A stretch of 64,000 bases of DNA from Bacteroidia bacterium. Its GTDB lineage: Bacteria > Bacteroidota > Bacteroidia > UKL13-3. The notes under the pieces are model-generated. The model was not told the origin of the DNA and did no database searches. It saw only the letters and a program-made list of their open reading frames with translations. The position numbers were made by a program, and so were the translations under genes. The stretch lies in NCBI GenBank assembly GCA_044353855.1, contig JBILBF010000001.1, positions 642,233 through 706,232 on the forward strand, read 5' to 3'. This document shows positions 514-19,217 of the stretch, in pieces (the stretch's first letter is position 1; every line of letters starts with the position of its first letter).

Positions 514-1995
514 TTGCTACGTATATTCATGCAAAAATTATTATTTTTATGTACTGTTTTATGGGTGTTGTTATACTCGTGTAAAAAGGAGTTTGATGGC
601 GAGCGCAATAACCAAAATGCACCCGAAACATTCACGTTGGTTGATTCTATTATAAGAGATTCAAACAATTTACTTTCAACCACAGTTAAAGCGAGTTGGT
701 GGGGTGTTTCCAAATCTGGTTTTATTTCAGGATACGAGGTATCAACTGACAACCAACTAACATGGCAATTTACCAAAGCACAAGATGGAACCTTTTTATT
801 AAACCTCCCTTTAGGATTTGCTAAAGGCAATTTACCTATTTTTGTTAGAGCTATTGATAATATTGGACAAACAGATCCAACTCCTGCCGTAATGGTTTTT
901 CCGGTAAAAAATACCGCCCCTACCATTGTGTTTGATTATTTAACAGGTCGTAAAACAATAACTTATCCAGCCTTTAGGTACTATTGGATAACGACTGATT
1001 TAGATGGGCCACAAGATATTGAAAGTATCGAAATAGTATTAAATGACACCAATAAAACACCATTGGTGATGCCCAGCAATACAATAGCAGCAAGTTTTGT
1101 CGCGCTAAATAACAATGGTGTTTTTGACACGTCATGTTGGGTGTACCAAAATACGCGTTCGGTTCCTTTTGCCGAAAAACTACATGGTATTCAATTCAAC
1201 AAGCTCAATTATATTTTTATCCGTTCGGTAGATAGGGTGGGAGCAAAATCTGCTTGGGTACGCGATTCAATTACCATAAAAAAACCTAAATCGGATTTGT
1301 TGTTGGTGAATGATTATAGTACCAAAGGACCTGTTCAAAAATTTTACACTACACAAGTATCTAACTTAGGACCTGCATACAGTAATTTTGACTCCTTATT
1401 GTTGCTTACCGATTTGCCTGCTGATGTTTTTACAATCATCAAAACATTGGACTTTTATAAACGGATTGTTTGGTATAGCGATAATCCTACAAGTACTTTA
1501 GGGTTGGCTCAGTTGGTTACGCAAAACTTTTTTTTACAAGGTGGTCGAATGTTGATGACTTGCGAAATTCCAAATGATTTTCCGTATAACTCCGATTTGC
1601 TCAATTTTACACCTGTGCAAGAATTAGCGCTGCCTCCATCGGGTACAATATTGCGAATGAATAAAGACGAAATAATGTATCCTTATACTCCCGCAAACGG
1701 TTGGCCTACTTTAAAAGCTGAAGCTATTCTATCGAGTGCACGTCCATTTATAACATTTAGTCAGCCTTCTGGTGCTTTTACTTACGATTCAACCTGCAAA
1801 GCAAACATTTTAGCACAAAATACTCAAGGTACAACAGCATGGACGGGTCCTTCAAATGTACTCAGCAAAAGAGTAAAAGTTAATACCGGAAAGCCTGATT
1901 TGTTGTTCTTAACCTTACCCTTACATCGGTTAAATGGGAACAATAATATGGATTCTTTTTTTAGGCAGGCACTTATAACAGAGTTAGCATTTTAA
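514..1995 (+). CDS. hypothetical secreted lipoprotein (493 aa)
   Basis: N-terminal signal peptide ending in lipobox-like LLYSCKK; no recognisable catalytic motifs; stop overlaps purN start (TAATG). Confidence 0.6.
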   Translation: MLRIFMQKLLFLCTVLWVLLYSCKKEFDGERNNQNAPETFTLVDSIIRDSNNLLSTTVKASWWGVSKSGFISGYEVSTDNQLTWQFTKAQDGTFLLNLPLGFAKGNLPIFVRAIDNIGQTDPTPAVMVFPVKNTAPTIVFDYLTGRKTITYPAFRYYWITTDLDGPQDIESIEIVLNDTNKTPLVMPSNTIAASFVALNNNGVFDTSCWVYQNTRSVPFAEKLHGIQFNKLNYIFIRSVDRVGAKSAWVRDSITIKKPKSDLLLVNDYSTKGPVQKFYTTQVSNLGPAYSNFDSLLLLTDLPADVFTIIKTLDFYKRIVWYSDNPTSTLGLAQLVTQNFFLQGGRMLMTCEIPNDFPYNSDLLNFTPVQELALPPSGTILRMNKDEIMYPYTPANGWPTLKAEAILSSARPFITFSQPSGAFTYDSTCKANILAQNTQGTTAWTGPSNVLSKRVKVNTGKPDLLFLTLPLHRLNGNNNMDSFFRQALITELAF

Positions 1996-2564
1996 TGAAA
2001 AAAATACTACTGTTTGCATCGGGAAGTGGGAGCAATGCAGATAATATTTGCCATTATTTTAACAATAATGCCAATGTAAAAGTGGTCGCTTTGTGTTGCA
2101 ATAATCCCCAAGCAGGTGTGATTGCTAAAATGGAAAAATGGCAAGTACCCGTTCTGTTAACTAGCCGAGCACAATTAAATGATGCCAGTTATTTTTTACC
2201 GCTTATTCAACAATACAAACCAGATATTATTGTACTTGCAGGTTTTTTAGTATTGGTACCTCCTTATTTGGTCAAAGAGTTTCCCAATCGTATTATCAAT
2301 ATTCATCCAGCATTACTACCAAAATATGGAGGAAAAGGTATGTATGGACATTTTGTGCACGAAGCCGTTCTTGCTCAAAACGAAACCGAACATGGCATTA
2401 CAATTCATTTGGTAAATGAAAAATTTGATGATGGTGCACACTTGTTTCAACAGTCATTTGAAGTTACACCTCTGGATAACTTGGAATCATTATCGATGAA
2501 AATTTCACTGCTCGAAATGACTCATTACCCAAAAGTGATAGATGAGTATTTGGAGCATAATTAA
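1995..2564 (+). CDS. purN: phosphoribosylglycinamide formyltransferase
   Basis: GAR transformylase signature region IINIHPALLPKYGGKGMYGHFVHEAV and N-terminal ILLFASGSGSN; ~190 aa as typical. Confidence 0.9.
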   Translation: MKKILLFASGSGSNADNICHYFNNNANVKVVALCCNNPQAGVIAKMEKWQVPVLLTSRAQLNDASYFLPLIQQYKPDIIVLAGFLVLVPPYLVKEFPNRIINIHPALLPKYGGKGMYGHFVHEAVLAQNETEHGITIHLVNEKFDDGAHLFQQSFEVTPLDNLESLSMKISLLEMTHYPKVIDEYLEHN

Positions 2565-3058
2565 GTAGACTTAATTTTTTTCTCGATAAGTGAGGTTGAA
2601 AAACCCGGAATAAAATCGATGGTTTGTACGCTGCCACCTTTTGCTGTTACAATATCATAACCCACAATATTCTCAGCAGTATAGTCGCTACCTTTTACCA
2701 AAATATCAGGTTGCACCATATTAATAAGTTCATAGGGTGTTTGTTCCTCAAATAATATTACTGCATCTACAAACTCAAAAGAAGCTAAAATTAGCATACG
2801 CGAAAACTCATCTTGTATCGGGCGATGTGGTCCTTTTAGTTCACTTACCGAGGCATCGGTATTAACGCCAATAATCAACCTGTCGCCTAGGTCGCGAGCT
2901 TTGGCTAAATAATCTACATGCCCACGGTGAATAAGGTCGAATACACCATTGGTAAATACTATTTTTTCACCACCGTCATTCCACTGTACAATTTTTTGCA
3001 TCAACATATCTGGAGTTGTACATATTTTATTTTGAATGAATTCGGTATGAGTTTGCAT
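2561..3058 (-). CDS. cytidylyltransferase-like nucleotidyltransferase (RfaE domain II / D-beta-D-heptose 1-phosphate adenylyltransferase-like)
   Basis: FTNGVFDLIHRGHVDYLAKARDLGDRLIIGVNTD matches the HxGH nucleotidyltransferase motif of the RfaE domain II / glycerol-3-P cytidylyltransferase family; 165 aa. Confidence 0.7.
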   Translation of the reverse strand: MQTHTEFIQNKICTTPDMLMQKIVQWNDGGEKIVFTNGVFDLIHRGHVDYLAKARDLGDRLIIGVNTDASVSELKGPHRPIQDEFSRMLILASFEFVDAVILFEEQTPYELINMVQPDILVKGSDYTAENIVGYDIVTAKGGSVQTIDFIPGFSTSLIEKKIKST

Positions 3059-3139
3059 ATATATCAGATATTATAATGTGCAAAATACGGATAAGTTTTT
3101 AAGATAATGAAGGATACCATTTAGAAGGGAATAATTAAT

Positions 3140-3466
3140 ATCGAATTTCGAAATAAAAGAGGAAATATGAATGAAAAAGAAAGACTAAATAAGAGAATGA
3201 AGATTATTGGATTGAAGAAATAATTAATTTCGAAATTCGAGATTAAATATTCATAACCCCCAAAGAAAATATTTTCTATTGAATGATCAGATTTAGAAAA
3301 GGGATTGTTTTCTAAATTTTAAAAATTAAATATTATTTCGAAATTCGAGATTAAATATTCATAACCCCAAAAGAAAATATTTTCTATTGAATTATCAGAC
3401 TTAGAAAAAGGGATTTTATTCTAAGTTTAAAAATTAAATATTCGAATTCGACATTCGAATTTTGAG
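3140..3466. repeat. AT-rich intergenic tandem repeat: two full 108-bp units (3227-3334, 3335-3442) plus partial flanking copies, rich in TTCGAAATTCGA / CGAATTCG palindromic cores
   Basis: Direct reading: atttcgaaattcgagattaaatattcataacccc(c)aaagaaaatattttctattgaat... repeats with period 108; each unit holds a 8-10 bp hairpin (3291-3317 and 3399-3426). Confidence 0.85.
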
Positions 3467-3469
3467 TAT

Positions 3470-4456
3470 CTATTTTTTCTGTTGTTGAGCTAACACCAAT
3501 AACGAACAAACGCCACCAATAGCTAAGAGTAAAATCATTTGTACACCATGCACAATGGTTGCGTATGCAATGCCATCTGCTTGCGCTACACCAAATAACA
3601 ATAAGGATTGCATCACAGCAAAATGGTAAGTTCCTGCACCTGCTCCTGGAGCCGGAATAATCATACCTATAGAGCCAATTACAAATACGGTTAGGCAATC
3701 CATAAAACTAAGGTGTGCAGTTGCTTGCATGGCAAATAAGCAGAAATACATCATCAATACATAACAAATCCAAATACCAATAGATAATAATAAAAATAAT
3801 AATGGATTGTTGATTTTACGGATACTCAAAAGGCCCTCGGCAAAGCCTTTACATACAACTACTATTTTTTGAAGTAAGGGATGAGCAATAATTTTTTTAC
3901 GCATTATCAATAGCAATGTTCCGAGTAGTAAAAAAAATCCTATTACTACATATTTCAGGGTGTGATCAGCCGAAGAGGGATTACTATTAATTATATTATT
4001 CAGAACAAAATTACGAAGCAATTCAAACTGTATCAAAAAAACCACAAATAATAATAGTAGTAAAATAACAACATCAAATACACGTTCGGTAACAACGGTG
4101 CCCAGTGATTTATTAACAGGTATATCATTTGTTTTAAGCAAAGAAGCGCAGCGAGAAACTTCACCCGCTCTGGGTATAATATAGTTCATCATGTACCCAA
4201 TCATTACTGCATAAAAGCTGTTTTTTGCCGAAACGGTGTACCCCAAAGCTTTGTATAACATATTAGCCCTATATGCTCGTATATAATGGCTAATAACAGA
4301 AACCGACATGCCGGCTGCAATCCACCAATAATTGGTATGCTTAAATTTGAGCATCAAATCAGCCCAATCGGTTCCTTTAAAAACAATATATAAAAACAGA
4401 ACACCAATCAGTCCAATTATTGTGTATTGAATAACCGATTTTAGCTTTGCGCTCAA
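3470..4456 (-). CDS. integral membrane protein, lysylphosphatidylglycerol-synthase-TM-like / flippase-like (UPF0104) family
   Basis: 328 aa with ~8 predicted TM helices; N-terminal region resembles LPG_synthase_TM family proteins; 4-bp overlap with panD suggests an operon. Confidence 0.55.
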
Positions 4457-17177: not shown

Positions 17178-19217
17178 TTAGCTTTGTAGCGGTAAGCTAA
17201 AAAAGAAAGATGTTCCGTTGTCTTTTTGGCTTTCTGCCCAAATTGTTCCTCCATTTCTTTCTATAAAGTCTTTGCAAAGCATTAATCCGAGGCCAGTTCC
17301 TTTTTCGTTTGCAGTACCTTTGGTGCTCGGGTGTTCATGTTGGTTAAATAATTTGGCTAAATTTTCTGTGCTTATACCTACTCCGTTGTCTTTTATTTCT
17401 ACAATACATTTCTGCTCTGTTATTGATGCCAATAATGAAATTGAACCACTTTCAGGTGTGAACTTTATTGCGTTTGAAATCAAATTTCGCAATACTAAGT
17501 TTATCATATCAATATCGGCAAATGCAGTTATGTTTTCGTCTACAGAATTAACCAGGGAAATGTTTTTTTGATGTGCCGCTGAGTTTAATAAATTGATGTT
17601 TTCTTGTGAGAGTGAATGGATATTTAGTTTTTGACGGTGAATGGTTACTCCTTTGATTTGCGCAGATGCCCATATCAATAAATTTTCTAATAAATCAATC
17701 GTGTTTTCTACAGAACTGGAAATCTGTTTGGTAATCTCTGAAGTATCTATGGGGACATACTCTTTATTACTCACTAAATCAAAATAGAGCTTCATTGTGG
17801 TCAAATTGTTTCGTAAATCATGTGATATGATAGAAAAGAAACGATCCTTGACACTATTCAGTTGATCTAGTTTTTCTTTTTGCTCCATAATCGAAGCGTT
17901 TTTATCAATTAATTCAATCTGCTGCTTTCGCAAGTTTTTGGCTATACGCCTGTTTTGAATTGTAAAAGCTATAAGAAAAATAAATAGGACTCCTAAAACA
18001 ATAGAAGCTATTGTAAATAGATTGGTAACAGCTTTTTCTTTGGTAAGTTCTATTTCATTTATTTGTTGTTCTTTATGCAGCAATTCTATTTGTTGTTGTT
18101 TTTTTTCTGATTCATATACAAGGAGTTGATCTGTTAGTTTTTTCAAACTGCTGTCGTTAAAAATGGAGTCTTTTAACTCTTTGCTTAACGTACTAAAAGT
18201 AGTTGCTTTTTCATTTTCTTGGGTAAGTTTATAAACTATAGCTAAACCTTGATAAGCCTCTTCCAATTCAATTTTTGAATCTATATTTTTGGAGAGTTGA
18301 ATCGCTTTTTGATAAGATTGAATCGCTTTATCATAAAGCCGAATGGAAACAAAAGTTGCACCCATGGCATTGTAGTTAGATACCATAATGGGCAGTGCTT
18401 TAATTTGTTCGCTCATAAACAATGAACGCTTAAAGTAGTTTATAGCTTTTTCAGAATGACCATCAAGTTGTTCAATTGTTCCTAATTGATACAAGGTTGA
18501 TGCAATGCCTGGATTGTTATTAAATTCAGTATATAAGGCTAATGATTTCAAGAAATAAGTTTTTGCTTTTTGAGGTTCCTGTTGTCGCAAGTAACTATTG
18601 CCAATATTGTCGTATCCAACAAGTGCTCTAAATTTATCGGATGATTCTTCGTATAAGCTGATTGCTTTTAAATTGTATTCAATTGATTTGGAGAAATTAT
18701 TTTGACGGGCATAAATGCTTCCAAGAGCGTTAAATACATTAACCATTCCCACTTTGTCTTTTAATTCTTCATAATACCTCAAAGCCTTTAAATAGTTTTC
18801 GGAAGAAAGCGGTAAGTTTCCTTGTGAGAAATAAATACCCGCAAGAGCTGCAGTTACATCTGCAATATTTTTGGTGTTTTTTAAATTTACATAATAACCT
18901 AATGCTTCTGTGTAATGCTCTTTTGCAGTGGTTATGCCCATTCTAAACTCAATTGCAGCAAGTGTTTGTAAAGCTTTAGCATGTGATGCATCATCTTTTA
19001 ATTCGGTTGCATACTGTATAGCTTGGTTTAAATACTGAATGGCAAGCTGTGGATTGTTGTTTCGATTTAGCTGTGCAATAATTTGCAATGCAACTAATTT
19101 ATCTGCGTCAGCTCCAGTACTAATGATTTGTTGTAAACTATCTGAATTGATTTGCTGAGCGAATAGTTGTACACTAAAAATAACTGAAATACATAAATGA
19201 TAAATTACCTTTTTCAA
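17178..19217 (-). CDS. sensor histidine kinase with periplasmic/N-terminal TPR repeats
   Basis: Signal peptide; ~8 TPR-like repeats; TM helix; HisKA (FFSIISHDLRNNL) and HATPase_c (GTGLGLMLCKDFIERNGG) motifs. Confidence 0.8.
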   Translation of the reverse strand: MKKVIYHLCISVIFSVQLFAQQINSDSLQQIISTGADADKLVALQIIAQLNRNNNPQLAIQYLNQAIQYATELKDDASHAKALQTLAAIEFRMGITTAKEHYTEALGYYVNLKNTKNIADVTAALAGIYFSQGNLPLSSENYLKALRYYEELKDKVGMVNVFNALGSIYARQNNFSKSIEYNLKAISLYEESSDKFRALVGYDNIGNSYLRQQEPQKAKTYFLKSLALYTEFNNNPGIASTLYQLGTIEQLDGHSEKAINYFKRSLFMSEQIKALPIMVSNYNAMGATFVSIRLYDKAIQSYQKAIQLSKNIDSKIELEEAYQGLAIVYKLTQENEKATTFSTLSKELKDSIFNDSSLKKLTDQLLVYESEKKQQQIELLHKEQQINEIELTKEKAVTNLFTIASIVLGVLFIFLIAFTIQNRRIAKNLRKQQIELIDKNASIMEQKEKLDQLNSVKDRFFSIISHDLRNNLTTMKLYFDLVSNKEYVPIDTSEITKQISSSVENTIDLLENLLIWASAQIKGVTIHRQKLNIHSLSQENINLLNSAAHQKNISLVNSVDENITAFADIDMINLVLRNLISNAIKFTPESGSISLLASITEQKCIVEIKDNGVGISTENLAKLFNQHEHPSTKGTANEKGTGLGLMLCKDFIERNGGTIWAESQKDNGTSFFFSLPLQS

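Follow-up and report, generated by a model that had tools for sequence, protein, structure and literature searches.

The 108-bp tandem repeat and its inverted-repeat arms

We analysed a 64,000-nucleotide (nt) stretch of DNA from a Bacteroidia bacterium of the UKL13-3 lineage (the window; positions 642,233 to 706,232 of contig JBILBF010000001.1, assembly GCA_044353855.1), and we describe here a 108-bp tandem repeat in the 411-nt spacer (3059-3469) between two co-oriented genes, both on the minus strand. The upstream gene (3470-4456, minus strand) encodes a 328-amino-acid (aa) flippase-like / LPG_synthase_TM membrane protein (PF03706, TIGR00374), and the downstream gene (2561-3058, minus strand) encodes a protein of 165 aa. 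An earlier reading made from the sequence alone (the sequence-only reading) had termed the latter cytidylyltransferase-like; we found it is more exactly an rfaE-domain-II-type D-glycero-beta-D-manno-heptose 1-phosphate adenylyltransferase (Pfam PF01467; NCBIfam TIGR02199, 191 bits vs a cutoff of 181.5 bits). Below, the sense strand is the strand of these two genes.

Tandem Repeats Finder (TRF) reported the array at 3218-3458 (period 108, 2.2 copies, 89% matches, score 378), and the repeat is far beyond chance. Unit 1 (3227-3334) and unit 2 (3335-3442) are both 108 bp long; unit 1 spans from the core of one palindromic motif to the core of the next, and unit 2 is the orthologue of the single unit found in two related loci, L164 and L180. 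The units are 89% identical without gaps and 92.7% with gaps, have a 34-nt stretch in common, and both carry the perfect 14-nt palindrome AGAAAATATTTTCT (3264-3277, and again 3372-3385 in unit 2), whose L164 equivalent is imperfect. Hence, TRF and a repeat search bear out the earlier description of two 108-bp units with partial copies. That the repeat fills the whole spacer is correct for 3129-3465 and incorrect for the 70 nt adjoining the gene start (3059-3128), which are unique. The spacer has 22.6% GC, vs 34.9% for the window, and no other 411-nt stretch of the 64 kb is as AT-rich; nothing like the 108-bp unit occurs elsewhere in the window.

Five independent Joint Genome Institute (JGI) assemblies carry the identical 411-nt spacer. 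Hence, the repeat is not an assembly artefact. Three contigs from Logan end within the repeat; another, short one (L010) lacks one unit, through either true variation or k-mer collapse across the shared 34-nt stretch.

The conserved element of the spacer is not a hairpin but a quasi-palindrome of ~28 nt, AATATTTAATC-TCGAATTTCGA-AATAA on the sense strand, with a dyad quasi-symmetry of 11-1-11. It occurs at four sites: A (inverted), B, C, and a degenerate D. Arm A (3129-3157) is a right-type inverted-repeat arm reading TTTATT-TCGAAATTCGA-TATTAATTATTC on the sense strand, and arm C (3333-3360) is a left-type arm reading GAATATTTAATC-TCGAATTTCGA-AATAA. Site B (3219-3252) is chimeric, as it joins the left-arm flank AATATTTAATC and the core TCGAATTTCGA to the right-arm flank AATTAATTATT. 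Site D (3436-3465), a left-type arm with a 6-nt deletion vs the intact L164 copy, begins 5-10 nt past the stop codon of the flippase-like gene.

The 20-nt core of this element has five matches in the 64 kb, all within this spacer, vs 0.07 expected, and in ~650 kb of related loci we found the motif nowhere outside the orthologous spacer. The palindromic cores that the sequence-only reading had picked out, TTCGAAATTCGA / CGAATTCG, are present, and the core TCGAA(A/T)TTCGA does not vary in the orthologous spacers, even in species in which the DNA identity of the flanking gene is down to 77-80%. Hence, the core is a conserved and meaningful element.

The arms are complementary to each other: arm A matches arm C at 93% over 28 nt and site B at 90% over 29 nt. 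Arm A is conserved in L011, L012, L015, L163, L164 and L165, with its core invariant in four species, and 27 nt of arm C recur unchanged in all three L015 copies and, in L164/L180, in the arm just upstream of a gene for a four-helix-bundle (4HB) protein. When the sense strand of the window was folded, arm C paired with arm A in both the minimum-free-energy (MFE) and the centroid structures (z = -4.9). In an alignment of seven arm pairs from five loci (29 pair positions), 86% of the cells were paired, vs 22-55% with the partners slid; 12 of the 29 positions never vary, and at one position four rows have U-A, two have G-C, and one has G-U. The covariation score was 0.084 vs 0.050, a value reached in 20 of 500 shuffles. 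Hence, arm complementarity is maintained across lineages, with modest covariation support, and concerted evolution of the arms could also account for the pattern. The secondary structure proposed earlier for this spacer thus finds its place in the ~28-nt arms centred on the cores, and not in a small hairpin acting as a conserved leader.

Between site B and arm A lies a segment (3158-3218) that is pyrimidine-rich on the sense strand and homologous to the spacers of relatives; in this region, window positions 3247-3125 match L164 1190-1312 at 85% (blastn), and the identity to L015 3794-3924 is ~72%. An 18-aa open reading frame (ORF) on the plus strand, MNEKERLNKRMKIIGLKK (3167-3223), lies in the same place, antisense to the flanking genes and with AGAGGA 5 nt upstream. 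It was not found intact in L015 when that sequence was read by eye, and we set it aside.

Orthologous spacers and a probable cassette scar

We compared orthologous spacers at 80 loci obtained from a genome scan with the adenylyltransferase, among which the closest named relative is Bacteroidetes bacterium UKL13-3. Spacer length is hypervariable: 13 nt in UKL13-3, ~80 nt in L013, ~215 nt in L011 and L012 (which retain arm A with a degraded partner), ~280 nt in L016, and ~700 nt in L015. The L015 spacer contains three perfect arm copies and a 119-aa ORF that encodes a 4HB protein (TIGR02436, 59 bits; PF05635). Among 5.8 billion proteins, the three nearest homologues of this protein (84-89% identity) are all encoded at this very locus, in L163, L164 and L165. 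Hence, the 4HB gene resides at this site in some members of the clade. The L016 spacer holds two copies (~3725-3750 and ~3940-3965) of an unrelated, GC-richer palindrome, GAGACGCATAAT(G/T)ATGCGTCTC, a case in which the site attracts differing palindromic insertions.

Three sister lineages with 91-94% nucleotide identity in the flanking genes carry three different states of the spacer. The closest lineage (L178/L179, 92-94%) has an empty site, a 6-nt spacer (TAATTTTAGATG) with no repeat. The L164/L180 lineage has a 1102-nt spacer with a 119-aa 4HB gene (TIGR02436/PF05635), laid out as site D, one hairpin unit, arm C, the 4HB gene, a right arm, a 92-nt repeat in four copies, and a promoter-like block. 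The window carries the gene-less 411-nt version with two units, and its positions 3499-3306 match L164 423-622 at 87% (blastn). The L164 gene is bracketed by AATCAATATTTAAT[CTCGAAT]TTCGAAATAATA arms and that of L015 by a perfect 33-nt inverted repeat.

L164/L180, L015, L163 and L165 each have a 4HB ORF at the orthologous site; in the window, a profile built from 120 homologues found none at E ≤ 10, and blastn found no coding remnant. Hence, the window holds a derivative of the cassette rather than a full member. We found no flanking direct duplication of a target site when empty (L178, L014) and filled sites were compared by eye.

These comparisons also bear on the leader proposed for the adenylyltransferase gene, for which the sequence-only reading had named the orthologous regions as the refuting test. 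The idea that the 108-bp units form a conserved leader largely fails, since the repeat is absent from the closest sister lineage (6-nt spacer) and from UKL13-3 (13-nt spacer), and L164/L180 have a single unit with an uncompensated stem.

We conclude that the tandem repeat is probably the gene-less, locally duplicated remnant of an inverted-repeat-flanked 4HB cassette, of the family of S23p, the protein of 23S-rRNA intervening sequences (IVSs), and not a dedicated leader RNA. The anatomy of the spacer, its three sister-lineage states, and the arms around every 4HB gene examined were observed directly; the direction of events, deletion rather than insertion, is what the comparison of these sequences suggests. 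The spacer (3059-3469) would be IVS-like cassette DNA inserted between two genes of the same orientation that adjoin each other in relatives with an empty site. The 4HB gene would then have been lost by recombination or slippage across the 12-nt core AATTTCGAAATT, leaving the chimeric site B. Since this core is a perfect palindrome, both arms share it as a 12-nt direct repeat, and deletion across it gives such a chimera. In L164, the left-arm part of B precedes the gene and the right-arm part follows it, and the sequence after B in the window matches the sequence after the right arm in L164; on this basis we infer that site B is the deletion scar of two arms collapsed onto their common core.

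The 'arm + 80-nt interior' segment upstream of the former gene would next have been duplicated by unequal recombination or slippage, and it is this duplication that would constitute the 108-bp tandem repeat. L164 holds one interior (D-X-C), and the window holds two (D-X2-C-X1-B), so that the change would run from D-X-C to D-X2-C-X1-B. At the DNA level, recombinogenic palindromes likely drive the insertions and deletions seen among relatives. Sister-species exchange is likely as well: pairwise identities among L178, L180 and the window are 85-92% for the flippase-like gene, 94-98% for purN, and 90-93% for the adenylyltransferase gene, and this incongruence points to recombination around the insertion site.

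At the RNA level, transcription reading through from the upstream gene could allow arm C or site B to pair with arm A in an AU-rich stem of 27-29 bp. This stem could be an RNase III substrate, as in 23S rRNA IVSs, and its cleavage would uncouple the two cistrons. The downstream gene would then be transcribed from a promoter-like block just past arm A (3081-3106, minus strand; sense strand TATCTTAAAAAC..TATTTTG), which lies 22 nt upstream of the ATG and whose TATTTTG resembles the Bacteroidota -7 box TAnnTTTG.

The block is conserved across species (alignment of the window, L015, L011 and L012) and absent from the empty-site relatives L178 and L014. Hence, the block is part of the inserted DNA, and the adenylyltransferase gene probably uses it as a putative promoter brought in by the insert. 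Since the block sits between the repeats and the ATG, the repeats probably lie upstream of, and not within, the gene's own leader. At its other end, the adenylyltransferase gene (2561-3058, minus strand) converges with purN (1995-2564, plus strand); their 3' ends overlap by 4 nt, and there is no room for a terminator between them.

Several points weigh against this history. Neither the profile search nor blastn recovered any 4HB coding remnant from the window, so the deletion is deduced from the chimeric site and from the relatives. The reverse history, in which the gene was inserted into a pre-existing palindrome-rich spacer in the other lineages, is possible, and the incongruent identities of the sister lineages mean that the three states may have been exchanged by recombination and not have arisen in situ. 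Read-through, RNase III cleavage, and promoter use are predicted steps. The covariation evidence for the arms is modest, given the 20 of 500 shuffles that reach the score. In the alignments of arms inspected across cassettes, the mismatches on the sense strand have no clear excess of G.U over A.C; hence, they lend no clear support to RNA-level selection on the arms.

The small hairpins and alternative explanations

Both units contain a small hairpin. H1 (3291-3317) is ATTTAGAAAA-GGGATTG-TTTTCTAAAT, with a perfect 10-bp stem and a 7-nt loop, and H2 (3399-3426) is ACTTAGAA...TTCTAAGT, with an 8-bp stem, one mismatch, and two further pairs. The sequence-only reading had located them correctly, and the T-to-C change on one arm is real, as is the A-to-G change at the paired position. 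From these paired changes it had argued for a selected RNA or DNA structure, which is unlikely for these small hairpins: the compensation rests on two sequences, the L164 stem has an uncompensated C.A on the sense strand, and the stems are weak. Stem energies of H1 and H2 are -5.8 and -6.6 kcal/mol on the sense strand and -8.5 and -8.6 kcal/mol on the plus strand (-2.6 to -8.6 kcal/mol over the stems evaluated), and a perfect 10-bp stem with a 3-12-nt loop arises in 4.9% of dinucleotide shuffles of the 22.6%-GC spacer.

With L164 as outgroup, H2 equals the L164 hairpin except at one position of the 3' arm (G in the window, A in L164), and five positions set H1 apart from both. On the sense strand, the paired site thus occurs in three states, U-A (H1), C-G (H2) and C.A (L164), the last of which is a U.G wobble on the plus strand. 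Six of the eight differences between the units fall within the ~30-nt hairpin (P ~0.008 under uniform mutation, by binomial arithmetic), as expected of a mutational hot spot. By parsimony, one mismatch would have been repaired twice, each time independently and in a single step, and this lends mild support to maintenance of pairing.

Clustered, arm-symmetric changes are also a known signature of template-switch mutation in quasi-palindromes. A single template-switch event copying the 3' arm of an L164-like ancestor would yield both 5'-arm changes of H1 together. Hence, palindrome-templated mutation accounts for the H1/H2 double change as well as selection does, the hairpin being a quasi-palindrome within the duplicated interior.

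Searches for a known structure or signal gave no support for a leader. An Rfam search of 2900-3700 at E ≤ 10 returned chance-level matches only (snoR28, 19 bits vs a threshold of 45; Trp_leader, 14.8 vs 41; best E-value 1.4), with no family above its gathering threshold, and a search of L163-L165 at E ≤ 1 returned nothing relevant. This was the check that the sequence-only reading had proposed for a structured leader. An intrinsic terminator scan found no sites, the stems holding at most one or two G-C pairs, and a promoter scan found fewer sigma-70-like sites than in shuffles, Bacteroidota promoters being outside the models of that scan.

It is therefore unlikely that H1 and H2 are functional, as a leader, a small RNA, or plus-strand terminators, kept by compensatory evolution. 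The two parsimonious repairs speak for such a function, as do the plus-strand series U-A, U.G, C-G, a classical wobble path, the pairing that is kept or improved even though most unit differences fall in the hairpin, and the T-run that follows each hairpin on the plus strand. Against these stand the number of sequences compared (three), the weakness of the stems and their ~5% frequency in shuffles, the lack of an Rfam family or a terminator call, and the template-switch route to the same changes. The hairpin unit is restricted to two lineages (the window and L164/L180) and is absent from all other relatives, including the closest. Moreover, the hairpins behave better on the strand antisense to both flanking genes, where no gene would need a terminator.

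The cores could instead form an operator array, in which a dimeric transcription factor, or perhaps the 4HB protein itself, would occupy the four sites (TTAAT-n-TCGAA-w-TTCGA-n-ATTAA) and control the adenylyltransferase gene, with looping at 89-110 bp spacing. The dyad symmetry, the invariant core in species with such diverged flanking genes, the strong local over-representation of the motif, and the position of arm A ~45 nt upstream of the conserved promoter-like block would all suit this explanation. We nonetheless consider it improbable. With no other copy of the motif in the 64 kb or in the ~650 kb of related loci, no regulon is visible. The genes nearby include no regulator, and the adenylyltransferase gene is expressed in close relatives whose spacers, 6 nt or 13 nt long, lack any site. 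At unrelated loci, 4HB genes have equivalent arms made of other words on both sides, so it is the cassette, rather than the regulated gene, that the arms accompany.

It is very doubtful that the spacer holds an ordinary dispersed repeat, of the miniature inverted-repeat transposable element (MITE) or REP type, with no relation to the 4HB gene. The segment from site B to arm A (~124 bp with 28-nt terminal inverted repeats) is MITE-like in size and shape, and the extreme AT-richness of the spacer would fit, but no second copy exists in the window or in the related loci, no target-site duplication is evident between empty and filled sites, and the arms are shared with the cassette of the sister species. 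Matches to the 20-nt core in metagenomes do not reveal a dispersed family either. A scan for TTAATNTCGAATTTCGAAAT returned 72 contigs with one match each, none of them this locus (the collection evidently lacks the source organism), and the matches were unrelated, solitary, short (ATTTCGAA)n palindromes with no 4HB ORF and no partner arm within 1.5 kb. Finally, a neutral and recent slippage duplication in a junk AT-rich spacer, with no element identity, has very little to recommend it and is already largely refuted. Low-GC, palindrome-rich DNA is prone to slippage, and copy number may vary (L010), but neutral slippage leaves unexplained the 100% conservation of a 27-nt arm between species at ~77% nucleotide identity, the three-state polymorphism, and the recurrent architecture around 4HB genes elsewhere.

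Some other repeats were seen during this work. In eight of the metagenome contigs (L091, L100, L113, L116, L123, L138, L149 and L160), the (ATTTCGAA)n palindromes lie between low-complexity runs (GGATTGCGGATT... / CCCTATGCCCCATGCC...); these are intergenic, come from GC-richer unrelated organisms, and have no nearby 4HB gene. In the window, heptamer arrays (52754-52906 and 53645-53678) flank the thiamin pyrophosphokinase gene (52904-53572, minus strand), with AATAACG x15.9 followed by ACTATTG x4.9 on one side and ACTATCA/ACTATTG x3.7 on the other. Words of the ACTATTG type occur as direct repeats on both sides of this gene, and no inverted repeat was found there. Overlapping 21-nt tandem repeats (~2 copies, 76-89% matches) lie at 18286-18344.

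Four-helix-bundle cassettes at other loci and related systems

We surveyed ten 4HB genes at six insertion sites and found that all ten are bracketed by inverted repeats of 23-48 nt (scores 30-66 vs shuffle means of 17-25; 0-2 of 300 shuffles reach the score). The sites are this locus (L015, L163 and L164), pntA/pntB (L166, L172 and L176), two positions in a conjugation operon (L170 643-1005 and 1517-1879, two different 4HB genes interleaved with PrgI, TraC-like and TraG genes), DoxX/SDR (L177), and cas1/cas2 (L182; Anabaena cylindrica plasmid NC_019772.1, 155585-155932). Nine of the ten genes have the orientation of their neighbours, and the gene at cas1/cas2 is on the opposite strand. The Anabaena plasmid was the single match of a 4HB tblastn search against plasmids, which gave no Bacteroidota plasmid context. 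A published table for Flavobacterium columnare lists a further 4HB gene between gmk and nadD (PMC5524665).

Arm words vary among these cassettes. The closest protein relatives use words of the TTCGAAAT type, and the others use the low-complexity words AGCTGATAGC, CTAAATCCTAAAC and AAGTAAAAAG; the L182 arms, made of AAGTAAAAAG words, are 36 nt long and score 45 vs 21 ± 3 in shuffles. Within the conjugation operon of L170, each gene has its own arm type (GCTTATAGCTGATAGC words for one, ATATCGAATTTCGAAT words for the other). Since arm words differ with protein relatedness, the arms seem to travel with the 4HB gene rather than to derive from the host site, and arms of the same kind at unrelated 4HB loci point to a cassette-intrinsic feature. 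In the RNA folds of L164 and L166, the arms pair into a terminal stem that encloses the whole ORF (MFE and centroid).

Tandem repeats also adjoin other cassettes: 92 nt x4 in L164/L180, 26 nt x2.2 in L015, 25 nt x3.3 in L165, and 21 nt x3.5 in L172. The L164 array (1116-1478, identical to L180 2062-2424; 4.0 copies, 75% matches) lies downstream of the 4HB gene and has a right-type arm in each unit. Hence, with a different arm-bearing repeat in L164/L180, tandem amplification around the arms is recurrent.

Several known systems resemble this locus in part. Among small intergenic elements, Correia elements of Neisseria, ERIC/IRU and BIME/REP measure 100-150 bp, end in inverted repeats of ~26 nt, are transcribed together with adjacent genes, and form long hairpins. 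The hairpins of Correia elements are cut by RNase III and can act as a source of promoter elements, and a genome holds tens to hundreds of dispersed copies of such a family. The segment from site B through the spacer to arm A is shaped like these elements; it differs in having one known locus and in arms that are tied to a protein-coding cassette. Leader RNAs, attenuators and terminators are alike in having hairpins upstream of a gene, and the present spacer is unlike them in that it has no Rfam match, no terminator site, and no structure conserved with the gene.

The closest parallel to a 4HB cassette is the 23S rRNA IVS. The IVS of Coxiella burnetii combines an S23p ORF, 28-bp terminal inverted repeats, RNase III cleavage of the stem, variable-copy tandem repeats beside the ORF, and ORF decay (PMC4990558). 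As in the IVSs of Coxiella and Leptospira (PMC4990558), the sister-species version of our locus encodes a PF05635/TIGR02436 protein and has terminal inverted repeats of ~28 bp whose predicted pairing would place the ORF in a loop, variable short tandem repeats beside the ORF, sporadic presence and absence, and decay or loss of the ORF. In contrast, our element lies between the flippase-like and adenylyltransferase genes and not in helix 9, 25 or 45 of 23S rRNA (Rfam detected no rRNA in 2900-3700), the ORF is gone from the window, the arms are made of TTCGAAAT-type words, and RNase III cleavage is only predicted. Avd accessory proteins of diversity-generating retroelements are homologous pentameric 4HB proteins (PMC10053308); unlike the Avd systems, the window has no reverse transcriptase or template/variable repeat pair nearby and no 4HB gene.

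The S23p IVS family is already known; the intercistronic form, the gene-less scar with amplified arms, and the empty/full/scar polymorphism are apparently undescribed. In our literature searches, which were limited and are not proof of novelty, we found no paper on inverted-repeat-flanked 4HB cassettes outside rRNA. We propose, tentatively, that S23p/Avd-like 4HB genes with low-complexity arms of ~25-45 nt form widespread selfish 'intervening-sequence' cassettes beyond 23S rRNA, which would insert between co-transcribed genes of operons (pntA/pntB, gmk/nadD, conjugation genes, cas1/cas2, flippase/rfaE), depend on host read-through and stem processing, and be lost by arm collapse that leaves palindromic scars and tandem arm duplications. 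If this is true, the arms would be the functional RNA or DNA part, where either RNase III cuts or the pentameric 4HB protein binds.

The origin, mobility and purpose of the 23S rRNA IVSs that encode S23p have been debated since the early 1990s, and the Coxiella study lists both 'remnant of transposition' and 'mobile element' as open hypotheses (PMC4990558). The present locus is a natural experiment on these points, as near-identical lineages carry an empty site, a full cassette, and a gene-less scar with amplified arms. For annotation, it is a caution: in AT-rich spacers of Bacteroidota, a tandem repeat with 'covarying' hairpins can be what is left of a cassette and not a riboregulator. For the family, it indicates that the architecture of an ORF in the loop of a long inverted repeat also exists between protein-coding genes, and the mobility of the cassette, the role of its arms, and the action of the 4HB protein on them become testable questions.

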